A stretch of 64,000 nt of DNA from Yuukianura sp. NJ FZ-2021 (taxonomy: Eukaryota). How positions within the stretch are numbered: position 1 is the stretch's first letter; each line of letters opens with the position of its first letter. A program made the translations under genes and the position numbers. The notes below the pieces were generated by a model, which was not told the DNA's origin, made no database searches, and saw only the letters and a program-made list of their open reading frames with translations. Below, piece by piece: positions 2,705 to 24,605 of the stretch. The stretch lies in contig CM102287.1 of NCBI GenBank assembly GCA_046563655.1, positions 7,626,001 through 7,690,000 on the forward strand. Direction: 5' to 3'.

Positions 2705-4107
2705 ATGTGTCCAAGTGTTAGCAGTTGGCAACCTGGGAACCTGCATCAACGAAGACATGATCGTTCACTGTTTAGAAAAGAAGCGGTCATAAAGCTTTAT
2801 CGTTGTGACGATGTCGTCAACCTTCGTCGCAGGCACAACAGTAGTCGCTCTAGGATGCCAGTGGTCATAGACAAGGAGATTGTTGTTAAAGTGTCTCGTT
2901 GTGACGATAATATTACTGCTCACCGTCGGCCTCGTTTTGATCCCTCGATGCTAAAACAACTGGTTATCAGGCTTACTCGCTGCGACGACGTTAATCAAGG
3001 TCAAAAGCCTGTAGTAGCGGATTACGGCCTAACAAACGTAACAGCACCTTCCGACATCAACCTTGGGAGCCGGAAACACGATTTGCAAGAAATTGAGCAA
3101 CAGGATGCGGGCTTGAAAGGAGAAGACGAGCCTCCGCAAAAGCGATTTTGTTCAATTGCTCCGATCGTAAAAGAAATTGAAGATGAAACCAAGCTAGAGT
3201 GAGCCATTTAAAATAATGTAGAAATTCGAAAACTTCACGAATACGTGCATCACTTGATTTATGAGAATTCGCTTAATGAAATGACCGTACATGATTTTCG
3301 ATTTGTTCCAGGGTTCTTGCTAGCGCCATGGAATTGGATACCGAGGTGAATTCAAGATTCGACTGCTACCTCAATTCGGGACTGGACTTCAAAACTGTTC
3401 GTAGCGTAAGACGAACTCCCACAGCGGAAGAGTATAACGTCGTTGCAATACCGTTTCAAAGTTATAATTCATATTTTCGTTTCGTTCCACAGCTTATGCA
3501 ACTATTCGCTGAAAAACCAGTCGACGCCACTTGTGTTTGGGCAGTCTGCGATCTGGTGAAGGGCTACGTCGAGGACATTATGGATGCAGGTAAGAACGGT
3601 AACTCTATGGTCAAGTGGTTCCATGCCATTGTTTCAAATGAATTGTTTCAAACACGAATTGTTTCGAAAGCCTAATTTTCATACCTAAACCTACCCTAAC
3701 TTACATAACTAACCTAAACTTAATTATTCTAATCCAAATTAACCTAATCTAAGCCTTAAACCCTAAACAACTGGTGTTTCGAAGCAATTATTTTTTCGAA
3801 ACAATGGCGTGCTCCCGGTCAAGTGAATCGGAGAAAATGAAATTGAGTCTTAATCGGTTTAAAATGCTGTCGCGTAGCTTTGCAGTATCAACAACATTGG
3901 GAAGAGAGTGGCCCAGTTTCTCCAGAAGCCATAATGGCTGCCACCCTTCAGCTACAAATCGAAGAAAACGTTCGAAATACGGCAGCGGAATCGGGAACAG
4001 CCACTAAAGAAATACTAGAATCAGGAACAGCCACTGCAGAAACACCATACTTAATAGGAACAACCACTGCAGACGCAGAGGCAGCAGCCGCAGTCGCAAT
4101 TCAATGA
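2705..4107 (+). CDS. Divergent TAF11 (TAFII28)-like histone-fold protein with N-terminal triple repeat; exons 2705-3198, 3312-3405, 3493-3589, 3878-4107
   Basis: Removing the in-frame 87-nt GT-AG intron 3406-3492 gives KLEVLASAMELDTEVNSRFDCYLNSGLDFKTVRSLMQLFAEKPVDATCVWAVCDLVKGYVEDIMDAALQYQQHWEESGPVSPEAIMAATLQL. This aligns by eye with the TAF11 histone fold (KMQILVSSF..EQLNRYE.YRRSAF.K..IKRLIQ...K.FVGEVVEEALDV.EKWGE..PL.PKHMREA). All splice phases are consistent. Confidence 0.7.
3617..3815. mobile_element. ~200-bp MITE with GG...CC termini and a 9-bp TSD (Mutator/Merlin-like), in intron 3 of the TAF11-like gene
   Basis: TIRs GGTTCCATGCCATTGTTTC / GAAACAATGGCGTGCTCC, subterminal ATTGTTTC(G/A)AA repeats, central degenerate (AACCT)n tract, and flanking tggtcaagt (3608-3616) / cggtcaagt (3816-3824). 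Confidence 0.7.
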
Positions 4108-4361: not shown

Positions 4362-5633
4362 TTATTTCCCTACAGAAGAGAGATGTCGACTTTCCTGGAC
4401 CCTGAGAACAACTGGAACACTCATGCAAGGCAGAATGTCAACGTCAGTGATAACTGCTGTGACGAGTTCAGGCGGAGTCAAGTCGTACTTGATCACTGGC
4501 GTAAGCAGTACACCTTCTCTCTGCAAATTGCCAATGACTTGTTGATCTTCATCTGGTCCACTGCTGCCATTTCCCTTGAGACTCTGCACCTTCCCGAATC
4601 CATATCCAAGTTCATTGTGAAAAAACGAATCTGTTGGTGACTTGTCACAAAACTTGTACGTTTCACAGCAAACCAATACGGGGATGTTATGAGCCGAGGC
4701 CATGAGTGCAATCTGAGCCGTTCCGACGTGGGCCAGCACTCCGCCGTTGGTTAGTAGTGCATGAGCTCCAAGAAATACTTTCGTTACAGTGTGGATGATA
4801 CTGCTAAGGCCAGTGATTGACGTATAAGTTAGAGAACTGACGACGTCTTCGTCCAGACCACTGACAACCTCCAATCCTTTTCCTTTACGCTCGTGCGCTA
4901 ACGGACGATCTCCGACCACGACGAGTGAAAACTTGAGTGTTCCTAGTTTGCTGACAGCCACTAATACGTCGGAAATGACTTCGGAGTAGCCGTAAACCAA
5001 TATTGTATCCCCGTCCCGGATTTTGTCAATTGACTTTTCGATAATTGCTTCCTTTGCTTTGATGATTCCCTCGAGATAGTCATTTAGAGCATCCGTCCAC
5101 TCGGCCTTGATGACAGTTTCGCTCAGTTCCAGGCTCTCCGAAGTACCATGACACTTGGAATTGAAGTATTCGATGGCATTATCCATAGATACGGCAAATG
5201 GACGACACTTTTTCAAAAAATTCAAATTAATCTTTAACTGTGTGGCGAATGCATGCCGAAAATCCTTTCCTTCCAGCGTCACGAACTTTCGAATGTATTC
5301 TGTCAGCGTACGAAGAAGAGCAATGCAGCGCTGATTTGAGCCTTGAATGACACCATTGGAGTACTTGAGTCCAAGGGCGTAGAAAAGGGGATCAACTCCA
5401 GTGTGGTCCGAGATAGAAGGACCGAATAGGCTAATCGATTCTACTGATTGAGGTACATAGTCAAACAGCGTTTGAACTTTTGACTGCGATTCGGATATTA
5501 AACGCTTCGGTGGTAATCCGCTGACTGCGCTGCCGGGCTTCCTTGCTTGCCCTGGGGTTGGAGATGTTCTGGATTCTTTAGGTGGGGACTTGGCTTTGTC
5601 ATTTGACACTTCCGAAGCAGCAGAGGATGTCAT
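4362..5633 (-). CDS. eIF2B4: Translation initiation factor eIF2B subunit delta, intronless CDS, 423 aa
   Basis: Motifs GSNQRCIALL, CRPFAVSMDNA, VFLGAHALLTNG, GTAQIALMA, VLVCCETYKF, YDLTPPELVTAVIT and SVPVVLR. Confidence 0.93.
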   Translation of the reverse strand: MTSSAASEVSNDKAKSPPKESRTSPTPGQARKPGSAVSGLPPKRLISESQSKVQTLFDYVPQSVESISLFGPSISDHTGVDPLFYALGLKYSNGVIQGSNQRCIALLRTLTEYIRKFVTLEGKDFRHAFATQLKINLNFLKKCRPFAVSMDNAIEYFNSKCHGTSESLELSETVIKAEWTDALNDYLEGIIKAKEAIIEKSIDKIRDGDTILVYGYSEVISDVLVAVSKLGTLKFSLVVVGDRPLAHERKGKGLEVVSGLDEDVVSSLTYTSITGLSSIIHTVTKVFLGAHALLTNGGVLAHVGTAQIALMASAHNIPVLVCCETYKFCDKSPTDSFFHNELGYGFGKVQSLKGNGSSGPDEDQQVIGNLQREGVLLTPVIKYDLTPPELVTAVITDVDILPCMSVPVVLRVQESRHLSSVGK

Positions 5634-6612
5634 TCTTATTTAGCTAGGAATCAATCCGGAAACTGAAAAATCGTGATGGATTTTCTCTCTCTTGTACTCT
5701 GATATTGGTTATCTAGAGACAATTCAAAATAATTAAAATAGTACTGTATAATTTTGTCTTTCTCTGGGAAATCCTTTCTTTATAGGTAGCTTCATAATAC
5801 AAAATTTTTGTCTTACGGGAGCGGACTTCAGAAACAAGAAGCTGCGCTGAAACTGAAAGGTCAACCTTGAATTACGTAATTCACTTTCCCAGGTCGAATG
5901 ATACAACTTCTATTTGTATCTAAGATTTAATTAGTTAATTATAATCAGAAAACTTTAGGAAAACGAAAAACAAATCTTTTTGAATTGAAATTGAGAATAT
6001 GGTTTCGGTTTGATAAATACTAAAAAAAATCCAATGTTCTCAAAAATGAAAGAAATCTCGGTTGAGGTAAGGATTAACAACCGCCAGTTACCGTAGCCTG
6101 ACAATGTAAGTTCGTCTATAAGTTCCCACGCAAATTCTTCGTCACTTCGAGTAGATATTTTCAATGTTTTTTTTTACAATAATAATGAAAAACGATAAGA
6201 AAATTAAATAGCTTCGTCATTTTTAGTAATCCGAAATTAAAAAGTCAAACTTAATTAAGAAAACATGAATTTAAAAACTCTTTTTTGAGAAGAACGGGCA
6301 TCTTTCAATATTTTAATTGCAAATATTTTATTGGACGTCCACAGTTAACTTGTAAATGCCACCATTATTAAGGCTTATCTTCGGAATCAGTATTGAAATT
6401 ACTAGAAATAGGTTTTTCAATGGAAAATACACAATGAATCGAAATCCCTATGAAAATTGATGCTGAAAATAAGTTAACAAAAGCATAGAGTTAACAACAC
6501 TTCAAGACTTTAACTTTTAAGGTAGAAGCTTGACTTGTGGTTTTTTAAAAAAAAAACTACTTTTAGAAAGAAAAAACTGTTCTATCGTCGGAATGAGAAG
6601 TTTTTCGAAATG

Positions 6613-20750: not shown

Positions 20751-23700
20751 TTAGTGAGTTGGTTTGCCTGAATTTGACGGAGAGGAGGAACGAGAAGATG
20801 AGGAGGAAGCAGAACGACGACGACGCTTGGATGTGTCGCTAGTACGACGTTGCTTGTCTCTACTTCGGGCTGGAGATGTAGATCTGGACTCGTGGCGACG
20901 TTTCTTCCCTTTTCTAGATTTACTGCTACTGCGACTTCTGCGTCTGCTTCGTTTGGATTTGCTGGAACTGCGACTGCGTCGATGGCTGTTTCTGGATGTA
21001 CTGGAACTACGACTCCTTCGTTTACTCTTCGATTTGGACTTGCTTGAACTACGACTCCGACTCTTCTTGTTTTTGGATTTGCTCAAACTGGGACTCCGAC
21101 TGTGCTTGGTCTTTGACTTCGTTTTGCTTGAACTGCGACTGCGTCGTCGCTTATCTTTTTTAGTTTTGCTGGAACTTCGGCTTCTTCTGTCTTTTCTGGA
21201 TTTACTCACACTCCGACTCCTTCTTCTTGCTTTGTCTCTGTGTGATGGAGACGTAGAACGTCCCCTGCTGTGACTTCGACTTCTTCTTCTCCGCTCTCTG
21301 CTTCGACTCCTGTCATGCTTGTCTTCTTTACGCGAAGACATACTGAGTCTACGCGATGATTCGCTGTCTCGCCGACTTCTTTCGTGGCTCCGACTTCTCG
21401 AAGCTCGTCGTCGTTCTGCTTTCTTGTCAACTTTCTCTTCTTCTCCTCGGGACTTTTCAGGCTGAAATGCAATTGGTTTCGTCGTTGATACGGAATGGGC
21501 ACTATGTAAGCTCTTCCCGTTCGTTCCAGGAAAAGAATCTCCAGACTTTGATCTGGATCGGGACATAACTTCGGCACTAGATTTTCCACGCGATTTGATG
21601 TTTTCTTCTTCCTCGTCAGCCAGAAGCTTCATCTCGAAATTCCGCTTCTTCCGCTCGATTTCAGCCTAGAATTGAAATAAATCATGATTATGGTGAGATT
21701 AACTGAGTGAGAAGTAATTTTAGAAGTTTGTGTCATTACAATGAGGCCATCTTCAGAATCAACATCGTTAGCCTCCAGAGGAGCTGCATCGTCAGAGTTG
21801 CTCGAATCGTCCTGATCCTCCGAGTCCGATCCGTAGTCACCCAGGCCTAAATTGAAGGTTGGGAAAACCAAAGCCTCTATAACAAGCTCCTAAACAATTT
21901 ACAGACACATGGGGAAATCGCTAATGCAGTTCACTTAAATAAACTGCATTGCGAAGAATCACGGCAGAGGAACAAGTACAACTCTATTGTTTTTTCTGCC
22001 ATGCAGCATTGGTTTTTCATCTGGCAAATTAACATACTAATATGACTTACCAAGTGGTCCACCCGTGAGGGAAGTAAGGGCTACTAGACTTTGGCCACGT
22101 GATGAGGTCACTTCATGAGAAAAAGAAATTTAGCAAAAACAATAACGGTAGAGCGTATCAAGGATAAGGGATGAAGATGATGCTGGAAGCGCTGGAATTA
22201 AACTCATCTCATAAATTGATGACTGCAGATTCAATTGGAAACTCACCTTCCCAATGTCTATATTTATAATCTTACTTTGGTTCAGAAGTGTATAACAACA
22301 TTGGCTGAGTTTAAACGTTTGTACTGTCCCTCAGCAGCTATAAACGACCCTCTGGAAATGAGGAATTATGGCGGCTTGTCAAAAAAATAGGTCCACAAAA
22401 ATAAAATTCACCGTTTTTCAATAAAGCGGTTTTCCTGCCACAGATTGTTCAAAATTTTTATTCTTTCACAATTTTGAACTTTTTTTTCAAAATTTTGAAG
22501 TTTTTTCAAAATTTTGAACTTTTTCTCAAAATTTTGAAGTTTTTTCAAAAACTAACTTTTTTCAAAAATTTTTCACTTTTTTCAAGATTTTTCAAAATTT
22601 TGACCTTTTTTCAAAATTTTGAAAAAAGGTCAAAATTTTGAAAAATCTTGAAAAAAGTGAAAAATTTTTGAAAAATCTTGAAAAAAGTGCAAAATTTTTG
22701 AAAAAAGTTAGTTTTTGAAAAAACTTCAAAATTTTGAGAAAAAGTTCAAAATTTTGAAAAAACTTCAAAATTTTGAGAAAAAGTTCAAAATTTTGAAAAA
22801 AAGTTCAAAATTTTGAAAAAAGTGAAAGTTTTTGGAAAAAGTTCAAAATTTTGAAAAAAGTGAAAGTTTTTGGAAAAAGTTCAAAATTTTGAAAAAACTT
22901 CAAAATTTTGAAAAAAAAAGTGTTCAAAATTTTGAAAAAAGTTCAAAATTGTGAAAGAATAAAAATTTTGAACAATCTGTGGCTTGTGGCAGGAAAACCG
23001 CTTTATTGAAAAACGGTGAATTTTATTTTTGTGGACCTATTTTTTTGACAAGCCGCCATAATTCCTCATTTCCAGAGGGTCGTTTATAGCTGCTGAGGGA
23101 CAGTAGTAAGAGAATTAGAGTTCCATAAGGAGATGGAGTTCTACATGTAGTACCTTTCTGCTTGGCCTTGGCTCTCTCCAGGGCTTCGACAGCGACAGTC
23201 CTCATCTCCTCATTGGTTACTTCCAGGAGTATCTTGGTCAGCTGCCGGCGGACACTCAGCATCTAGGTCAAAAAATTAGGAATTTTCTATAAGAAGTATT
23301 GGTTAAACTTTAACTTAAAGAAAATGCTTGGTTGAACTCACCACTTGCTCCATTTGTTCATCCTTGGTCAGTGAAGCAAGGATTTCGTCAAGTGATAGCT
23401 GTCGAGGCTGAGATTGCCGGAACGAGCCCTTCAATTTGATGCTGAATCCTTCCTTATCCCCGTCGGCACCGAAAAATACGGCGGGTTCGGGCTCTTCTGT
23501 AGGTTGCGCTTCCGGTTGAACCTGAGGTTGGTCAAAATCGCTTGCCCATTTACTGGTTTCGGTTTGCTCCTGGTCACGCTTACGACGAAGTCGACGTTCC
23601 TCCTCTCGTTGTTCGGCTAGTCGTTCTTTTTCTTCAGCCTTTCGCTTCTCGCGCTCTACTTTCTCCAGGCCCTCGCGTATCCAAGATGGTAAGGCCCTTC

Positions 23701-24605
23701 GCCGTGCTGCTTCAGCTTAAAATACAAAATATTGCGTGGATGAGCCTCGGAAGATGGTGACTAAATTATGTTACATACCTAGATCTTCTTCGTATGTCTC
23801 CTCTTCTTGATAGCTTTGTCTCCTGTCGGTATAATTCGCAGTATATCTTCGGTCATTAACATTGTAGTTGCTAAAGTCAACACCTGAGTGCATCCAACTG
23901 TTGTTTCCATAAGTATTACCGCCTGAAACTTCGGAAGCCGACGACCTTCCTAAATGCTGTAAGATTCGACATCAAAATTGGCAATAAAGGCATGTTTATT
24001 TTGTTTTCGAGTTTTAGTTCCATAAAATACTTGCCTCGTTGATTTGGTTCTGATGAAAAGCAGGTTGAGACCATGTTTGATTCGGTTGATGTTGAGAGAA
24101 GTGACTAACGTTAGGACTGAGCGACGTTCCAATTCCTCCAGCAGCCACTGCCGAAGAGCGAGTGTACAACGGTGCATTGACAGACTCGTCCAAGTCCATT
24201 GGAGCTTCACCAATAACATCCTGGTGATGCTGGTGTTGATGCTGAAACGACGCAGCCTGAGTTTGGTGCTGGTGGTGCTGCGGGACAGGCGGTGCTTGTG
24301 CAACTTCCTGACTTTGACCCTCCACTTGCTGATTCTGATTGACATTGGTCCCCTTCATTTGAATCCATTGTTGTGCCAACGACGCCCAGTCAACTGCAAA
24401 ACGGTTACAATTTATCCAGTGTTCAATCGATCCAGAACGTAATCACTTCGTTAACTTACCTTGATTATGGGGGATTTGCCGGTAATGATTGGGATCTAAA
24501 GACCACGTAGGTGCAGCATTCATTCCTGGCAATTGTTGCCCTAGTTGTTGTGGGATATTTCCTTCCGGATTCCAACCGGACGCAGCCTGTCCACGGCCCC
24601 ACATT
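20751..24605 (-). CDS. PNISR: Arginine/serine-rich protein PNISR (SFRS18)
   Basis: VDWASLAQQWIQMK, RRKLPVWIREGLEK, MLSVRRQLTKILLEVTNEE, LTSLTGG..GLGDYGSDSED and a long RS tail. Confidence 0.92.
22324..23103. mobile_element. 780-bp foldback/palindromic non-autonomous element with TA target duplication, in a PNISR intron
   Basis: About 150-bp near-perfect outer inverted repeats (CTGTCCCTCAGCAGCTATAAACGACC... / ...GGTCGTTTATAGCTGCTGAGGGACAG) flanked by TA on both sides. The interior is built of ~20-bp TTCAAAATTTTGAA units with an axis of symmetry at 22616/22617. Confidence 0.9.

Follow-up and report, generated by a model that had tools for sequence, protein, structure and literature searches.

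A putative, highly diverged TAF11-family gene with a tandem array of candidate HP1-docking motifs in Yuukianura sp.

Background

In TAF11 proteins a variable, disordered N-terminus precedes a histone fold at the C-terminal end. The present work concerns a TAF11-like gene in a 64-kb stretch of DNA from Yuukianura sp. NJ FZ-2021 (contig CM102287.1, positions 7,626,001 to 7,690,000, forward strand), the whole of which is referred to here as the window. The gene lies at positions 2705-4107 of the window. Its product would carry a very diverged TAF11-family histone fold and, ahead of the fold, a short motif in three tandem copies, which may dock on proteins of the HP1 type.

The TAF11/TAF13 pair is reported to bind TBP (PMC5690282). 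Duplicates of TAF11 have been described in other animals: the stalk-eyed fly Sphyracephala beccarii is reported to have two Taf11 copies, basal-factor genes being expanded in stalk-eyed flies, and Drosophila testis TAF paralogs exist (both PMC4824122), while human TAF11-like genes form arrays (PMC3018141). Since such duplicates are known, a TAF11 paralog alone would not be new. Several reports connect basal factors with chromatin. Moonshiner, a TFIIA-L paralog of Drosophila, is a basal-factor paralog that is brought to heterochromatin (PMC8321551), and in C. elegans TAF-12-containing machinery is reportedly brought to piRNA clusters by a reader of H3K27me3 (PMC12658099). An interaction of HP1 with human TAFII130 appears as the title of a reference cited in PMC7465937.

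Two classes of docking motif have to be considered. The HP1a Access Code (HAC), an expanded PxVxL motif, is a 14-position pattern taken from a 2025 study of Drosophila HP1a, and the organism analysed here is not a fly. HAC is described as a central V or I (position 0) accompanied by a hydrophobic residue at -2, an aliphatic one at +2 and a basic one at +4, with three to six basic residues within -4 to +4 and a location in a disordered region; acidic residues are excluded at -6, -3, -1, +1 and +5, as are W and Y at +3 (PMC12526061). A SUMO-interaction motif (SIM) is described as a four-residue core with at least three V, L or I, next to which lies a stretch that is acidic or can be phosphorylated. 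When arranged in tandem, like the four SIMs of RNF4, such motifs give avidity for polySUMO, and the SUMO groove is lined by lysine residues that contact the acidic residues of the SIM (PMC12751080).

Results

The segment 2705-4107 (plus strand) was resolved into a four-exon gene with 915 nt of spliced coding sequence and a product of 304 residues, running from the ATG at 2705 to a TGA at 4105-4107. A syntenic ortholog was found on L001, a metagenome contig of 5644 bp that also encodes a 75% identical relative of the neighbouring eIF2B-delta gene, in the same convergent position. The window gene matched L001 in tblastn with an E-value of 1e-21, and the reverse search gave 9e-12 and 2.5e-6. The L001 gene (minus strand; exons 4899-3866, 3769-3682, 3600-3504 and 3419-3301, with GT..AG intron ends) encodes 445 residues. 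All three intron positions and phases are common to the two genes, and the proteins are 51-53% identical over exons 2-4. Judged from the sequence, the window locus is a real, intact and conserved protein-coding gene; a pseudogene or chance open reading frame (ORF) was rejected, the frame being intact and conserved in two species.

Exon 1 (2705-3198, 494 nt, residues 1-165) is an ORF that runs into the donor AGA/gtgagc, and it is assigned to the gene because its frame ends only in the donor consensus, after a conserved K-L-E, in both species. Intron 1 (3199-3311, 113 nt, phase 2, gtgagc..ttccag, GC 0.34) has a 96-nt counterpart of the same position and phase in L001. Exon 2 (3312-3405, 94 nt) encodes the first helix and loop of the histone fold and is 45% identical to exon 2 of L001, while exon 3 (3493-3589), which encodes the long central helix, is 63% identical and has 97 nt in both genes. 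Between them lies intron 2 (3406-3492, 87 nt, gtaaga..ccacag), which is in frame and free of stops and so sits within a single open frame, ORF 3295..3675. The homologous 81-nt intron of L001 carries a stop, in support of the 87 nt being intron rather than coding sequence; the earlier proposal that an in-frame intron hides the histone fold was borne out. Intron 3 (3590-3877, 288 nt, phase 1, gtaaga..gcgtag, GC 0.36) contains ten stops when read in frame and corresponds to an 84-nt intron at the same place in L001. Exon 4 (3878-4107) begins with the region of the third helix (up to about 3981) and continues into a tail rich in Thr, Ala and Glu (3982-4104) before the TGA stop. An alternative in-frame acceptor at 3848, 30 nt upstream of 3878, would add 10 residues. 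The L001 junction supports the acceptor at 3878, which is preferred, and alternative splicing through 3848 is possible. The splice ends of all three introns are GT..AG with good consensus, and the GC content of the exons is 0.46-0.51 vs 0.34-0.40 for the introns.

The assignment of the C-terminal region to the TAF11 family was based on several weak but concordant lines of evidence. Contiguous pieces of the two genes, 12 of which contained histone-fold sequence, were scanned against 24,736 Pfam families with matches reported to E ≤ 10. PF04719 (TAFII28) was the sole family found for five of these 12 queries, and the five came from both species. The best piece was the exon 2 ORF of L001 (E 0.0044, 17.4 bits); the others were exon 2 of L001 alone (E 0.014), the exon 3+4 ORF of L001 (E 0.17) and the window segments 3313-3588 (E 0.048) and 3313-3675 (E 0.059), with scores that ranged over 15.8, 14.1, 13.8 and 12.3 bits. 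The matches were collinear, exon 2 (from L001) covering profile positions 5-36 and exon 3 positions 29-61, and a rough sum of two L001 pieces, 17.4 and 12.3 bits, comes to about 30 bits, past the cut-off of 27. It is very unlikely, on these sequence matches, that two exons would, in order, each match only the same one of 24,736 families by chance.

The L001 exon 3-4 ORF had two TAF11 clusters as its first protein-language-model neighbours (0.87 and 0.85), followed by TAF13, CENP-S and archaeal histones (0.81-0.85), all of them histone-fold families; the scores were all below 0.9 and give a lead only. An AlphaFold2 (AF2) model of the L001 exon 3-intron-exon 4 ORF showed helices in the stretches encoded by exons 3 and 4, with a mean predicted local distance difference test score (pLDDT) of only 53.8, too low to rely on. 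The C-terminal 97 or so residues encoded by exons 2-4 were concluded to be, in all likelihood, a very diverged TAF11-family histone fold. The original prediction of a TAF11-like spliced product thus agrees with the single Pfam family found in two species and with the nearest language-model clusters, and its description of the protein as a highly diverged relative agrees with a best contiguous score of 17.4 bits vs the cut-off of 27.

The gene appears clearly to be under purifying selection. Over the fold, the proportion of nonsynonymous differences (pN) between the window and L001 was 0.28-0.30 and that of synonymous differences (pS) 0.74, which is saturated, so that a ratio of nonsynonymous to synonymous divergence (dN/dS) is not computable. 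The nonsynonymous divergence itself (dN) was 0.36-0.39. For the neighbouring eIF2B-delta, which is 78% identical between the two, pN was 0.14, pS 0.77 and dN 0.15; the dN of the TAF11-like fold is therefore about 2.5 times that of its neighbour. A block in exon 4, ESGPVSPEAI, is kept in L001. The tail that follows (3982-4104, the last 41 or so residues) is absent in L001 and is built of 30-33-nt direct repeats of two families, D1 and D3.

The N-terminal 165 residues are predicted to be disordered and contain three tandem copies of a 12-residue motif. These are found at 2777-2812 (KEAVIKLYRCDD, centred on I29), 2873-2908 (KEIVVKVSRCDD, centred on V61) and 2954-2989 (KQLVIRLTRCDD, centred on I88), all on the plus strand, as had been proposed earlier. 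The tetrapeptide RCDD occurs three times in the six frames of the window, each time in this array, a clustering far beyond chance, though the copies are one duplicated unit. At the DNA level the only trace of the repeat is one exact repeat of 13 nt, 96 nt apart, which points to an old duplication kept at the protein level. Exon 1 has no Pfam family, and among 1.84e9 representative sequences it had no relative save P0001, a spurious bacterial repeat protein. A search for longer related proteins found none either. An AF2 single-sequence model of exon 1 gave a mean pLDDT of 32.6 with no element above 50, which is weak evidence for disorder.

In all three copies the core has V or I at 0 between a hydrophobic residue at -2 and an aliphatic one at +2 (AVIKL, IVVKV and LVIRL). 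Each also has K at -4, K or R at +1 and R at +4, giving three basic residues within -4 to +4. The third copy matches the printed HAC consensus in full, the second has one violation (E at -3) and the first has two (E at -3 and Y at +3). The stricter signature that the copies share was observed three times vs 0.005 expected in shuffles, a figure to be read with the fact that the three copies, as one duplicated unit, count as one sample. A pattern drawn up post hoc, [KR][DEQ]-hydrophobic-x-[VI]-x-aliphatic-x-[KR], occurs three times in the window protein, twice in the L001 protein and not at all in the 11,751 residues of the other long ORFs of the window, the shuffle probability of at least one occurrence being 0.02-0.03.

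The L001 protein has no full HAC match. It does have two tandem near-HAC copies, KDFPVSVKK and KDFPVSAKK, which are not aligned with the window copies. MAFFT aligned the second window copy with an EAVVRL segment of L001 that fails the HAC consensus. Exon 1 of L001 encodes 345 residues, twice the number in the window, and matched only itself in the database search; the two N-termini are alignable only near their ends, and no missed upstream exon similar to the long L001 N-terminus was found in the window. The L001 exon (4899-3866, minus strand) has internal repeats of its own, in which an acidic SIM-like motif is paired with a stretch rich in Arg, Thr and Ser, and it also carries KDFPVS[VA]KKRG twice in tandem.

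Immediately ahead of the fold, the two proteins align again. The sequence PPQKRFCSIAPIVKEIEDETKLE, encoded at 3131-3198 (plus strand), and ESKFCSIAEVDIDDEGKLE of L001 can be aligned as far as the donor, which has the same position in both. This block begins with PPQKRF (3131-3148), which had been described as resembling a nuclear localisation signal. The part conserved in L001 is K-x-F-C-S-I-A and the basic pair changes there, so the localisation signal was rejected and PPQKRF is read instead as part of a conserved block before the histone fold.

On the minus strand, an eIF2B-delta gene (4362-5639; PF01008, E 2.9e-51) lies in convergent orientation to it. The other genes of the window encode an ABC transporter, an innexin, PNISR, a CUB protein, a cullin, an acyl-CoA dehydrogenase, an allantoicase and TyrRS, all ordinary animal genes. 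Among named proteins, the closest to the eIF2B-delta ORF comes from a springtail and has only 46% identity, and two unnamed metagenome/Logan proteins are 75-77% identical; to judge by such matches, the lineage is that of an invertebrate barely represented in protein databases. No second copy of the TAF11-like gene or of its motif and no HP1 gene were found elsewhere in the 64-kb window, and scans of the window for Rfam families and tRNAs were empty.

Two repeat features were also observed. Intron 3 of the TAF11-like gene contains six CCTAA pentamers in about 100 nt (3671-3766) vs a window mean of 0.06 per 100 nt, and Tandem Repeats Finder reported 16- and 24-nt arrays at 3628-3716 in the same intron. 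Read as its reverse complement, the CCTAA tract is a degenerate run of TTAGG, the arthropod-type telomere unit, and it may be an interstitial telomere-like tract. Elsewhere in the window, the same weak tblastn match occurs at 22359-22436 and 22991-23068, on opposite strands and about 550 nt apart, which suggests an inverted duplication adjoining the PNISR-like gene at 23318-23716.

Discussion

We favour the reading that the gene encodes a TAF11-family variant of a TFIID-type subunit with a candidate HP1 docking array, and place the probability of this reading as a whole at roughly 0.4. The fold would still pair with a TAF13-type histone-fold partner, as TAF11 does, and the protein would act as a variant TFIID-type subunit. 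The N-terminal array would consist of short docking motifs that add a beta-strand to a partner. For the window copies the most likely class of partner would be an HP1-type chromoshadow dimer. In each copy a hydrophobic-x-V/I-x-aliphatic core is accompanied by basic residues at -4, +1 and +4. The variant subunit would thereby be tethered to HP1-marked chromatin.

Compared with TAF11, the protein is alike in its sole Pfam family, in the collinear matches of exons 2 and 3, in its nearest language-model clusters and in the order of a disordered N-terminus followed by the fold. It differs in scoring 12-17 bits per piece vs a cut-off of 27, in its acidic fold, in evolving at about 2.5 times the rate of its neighbour and in having a motif array; pairing with TAF13 and presence in TFIID are predictions. 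Like Moonshiner, it would be a basal-factor paralog brought to heterochromatin, which for the window gene is a proposal made from sequence. Moonshiner, however, belongs to the TFIIA-L family and is recruited by an adaptor rather than by a direct chromoshadow motif. The copies resemble HAC ligands in the -2/0/+2 core, the basic residue at +4, the three basic residues within -4 to +4 and the predicted disordered region, but differ from them in the Tyr at +3 of one copy and in a conserved C-D-D after the motif that is not part of HAC.

Several results weigh against this reading, in addition to the low language-model scores and the single origin of the three copies. No contiguous piece reached the Pfam gathering cut-off of 27 bits, the best having 17.4, and seven of the 12 fold-bearing queries had no Pfam match, including window exons 2, 3 and 4 alone (exon 4 in two queries) and L001 exons 3 and 4 alone. 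A language-model neighbour query with a window piece gave no usable match. No TAF11 chain appeared in searches of PDB sequences, in which the window exon 2-intron-exon 3 segment and exon 4 had no matches, and two small profiles, A4, which included intron columns, and A3, returned one and seven noise matches, respectively. The fold carries a net charge of -10 (window) and -9 (L001), and the canonical TAF11 fold is basic; in an acidic fold, contacts with TBP, TFIIA or DNA may be lost. As to the array, Glu occupies position -3 in two of the three copies, where the Drosophila consensus bars acidic residues, and at least one full HAC match was obtained in 24% of shuffles, so that a single one has no statistical significance. 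L001, the sole relative found, does not keep the motif in its RCDD form.

The label of PxVxL-like motifs therefore held in part: the copies fit a HAC-type signature, one of the three in full and all with the shared basic residues, whereas the RCDD form was not kept in L001. On the sequences compared, the HP1 proposal appears better founded than the bare label implied, and an HP1-type reading of the motifs is plausible with SUMO as a live rival.

The alternative that survives best is that the gene is the organism's only TAF11, fast-evolving and with an ordinary TFIID job, its N-terminal motifs being a lineage-specific decoration. The layout of a disordered N-terminus and a C-terminal histone fold is that of TAF11 itself, the gene is old (syntenic in two species with saturated synonymous sites), and there is no second copy within the 64-kb window. 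Fast evolution could also be lineage-wide, the best named relative of eIF2B-delta being only 46% identical. However, the fold dN of 0.36-0.39 is about 2.5 times the 0.15 of that same neighbour, and in its canonical form the TAF11 fold changes at a lower rate than eIF2B-delta does. The acidic charge of the fold, Pfam scores far below those of ordinary members and the TAF11 duplicates of other animals also speak against a sole ortholog, which we regard as unlikely. As far as the sequence comparison goes, the gene is most likely a candidate fast-evolving extra copy beside a canonical TAF11.

HP1-type and SUMO-type motifs alike engage their partners by adding a beta-strand, and HP1 and SUMO are both marks of silent chromatin. 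The N-terminal array could be one of SIMs, by which a TAF11-like subunit is recruited not to HP1 but to (poly)SUMOylated chromatin proteins. A point in favour, and a further one against HP1 docking, comes from L001, in which the SIM-like motifs VITIDTGSEDES and VITVDTESVDE each have four acidic residues within the seven that follow the core and no basic residue. The window copies also have cores of the SIM type (VIKL, VVKV and VIRL), each followed by DD after x-R-C. They resemble the tandem SIMs of RNF4 in having repeated V/I-rich four-residue cores, then acidic residues, in a disordered region, and the two L001 motifs are near textbook. Unlike RNF4, the window copies are basic around the core, each having two basic residues in and near its core and, ahead of the DD, an Arg, and since the SUMO groove is lined by lysines weaker binding to SUMO would be expected. 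Moreover, the SIM-like motifs of L001 do not align with the window copies, and SIMs are loose and frequent by chance. We consider SUMO recruitment quite unlikely as the explanation of the window array. The array may turn over between HP1-type and SUMO-type motifs in related species.

It is distinctly improbable that the histone fold has left TFIID for another fold partner or for a role outside initiation, of which the reported RNAi role of Drosophila TAF11 would be an example. The divergence is extreme and the charge apparently reversed, and the TAF13, CENP-S and archaeal histone clusters score near TAF11 (0.81-0.85 vs 0.87); Pfam, on the other hand, gives TAFII28 only and no other histone-fold family. 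Least probable is that exon 1 is a separate or upstream ORF outside the gene and that the TAF11-like protein starts at the exon 2 Met (ATG 3329): the exon 1 ORF does end in a stop of its own (3200-3202) and that Met has a good Kozak context (GCCATGG, 3326-3332), but the stop falls inside the donor consensus GA/GTGAG, the exon 1 ORF of L001 also ends inside its donor (GA/gtaaat) at the corresponding KLE, both genes have a phase compatible with exon 2 and coding similarity with L001 begins right at the acceptor, ahead of the exon 2 Met.

Conclusions

The favoured reading is thus of a variant TFIID-type subunit of the TAF11 family with a candidate array for docking on HP1. A literature search on TAF11 paralogs turned up no TAF11-family protein with a docking-motif array, and to our knowledge none of the heterochromatin-linked or paralogous TAFs has been described as a TAF11-family protein with tandem docking motifs. 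The new part would be the combination of a TAF11-family fold with such an array. The fullest form of the proposal, in which tandem HP1 motifs tether a TAF11-family subunit directly to heterochromatin, as an independent, non-dipteran origin of transcription initiation that depends on heterochromatin, analogous to Moonshiner and with an array that turns over between HP1-type and SUMO-type motifs, is a long shot.

Chromatin-specialised paralogs of basal factors are few and have been found one by one, as in the case of the fly testis TAFs and Moonshiner. If the favoured reading is true, a heterochromatin reader, or SUMO, would be linked directly to the part of TFIID that loads TBP, in an almost unsampled invertebrate lineage. 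If the gene is merely the fast-evolving TAF11 of its lineage, it would show how far a normally rigid fold can drift.

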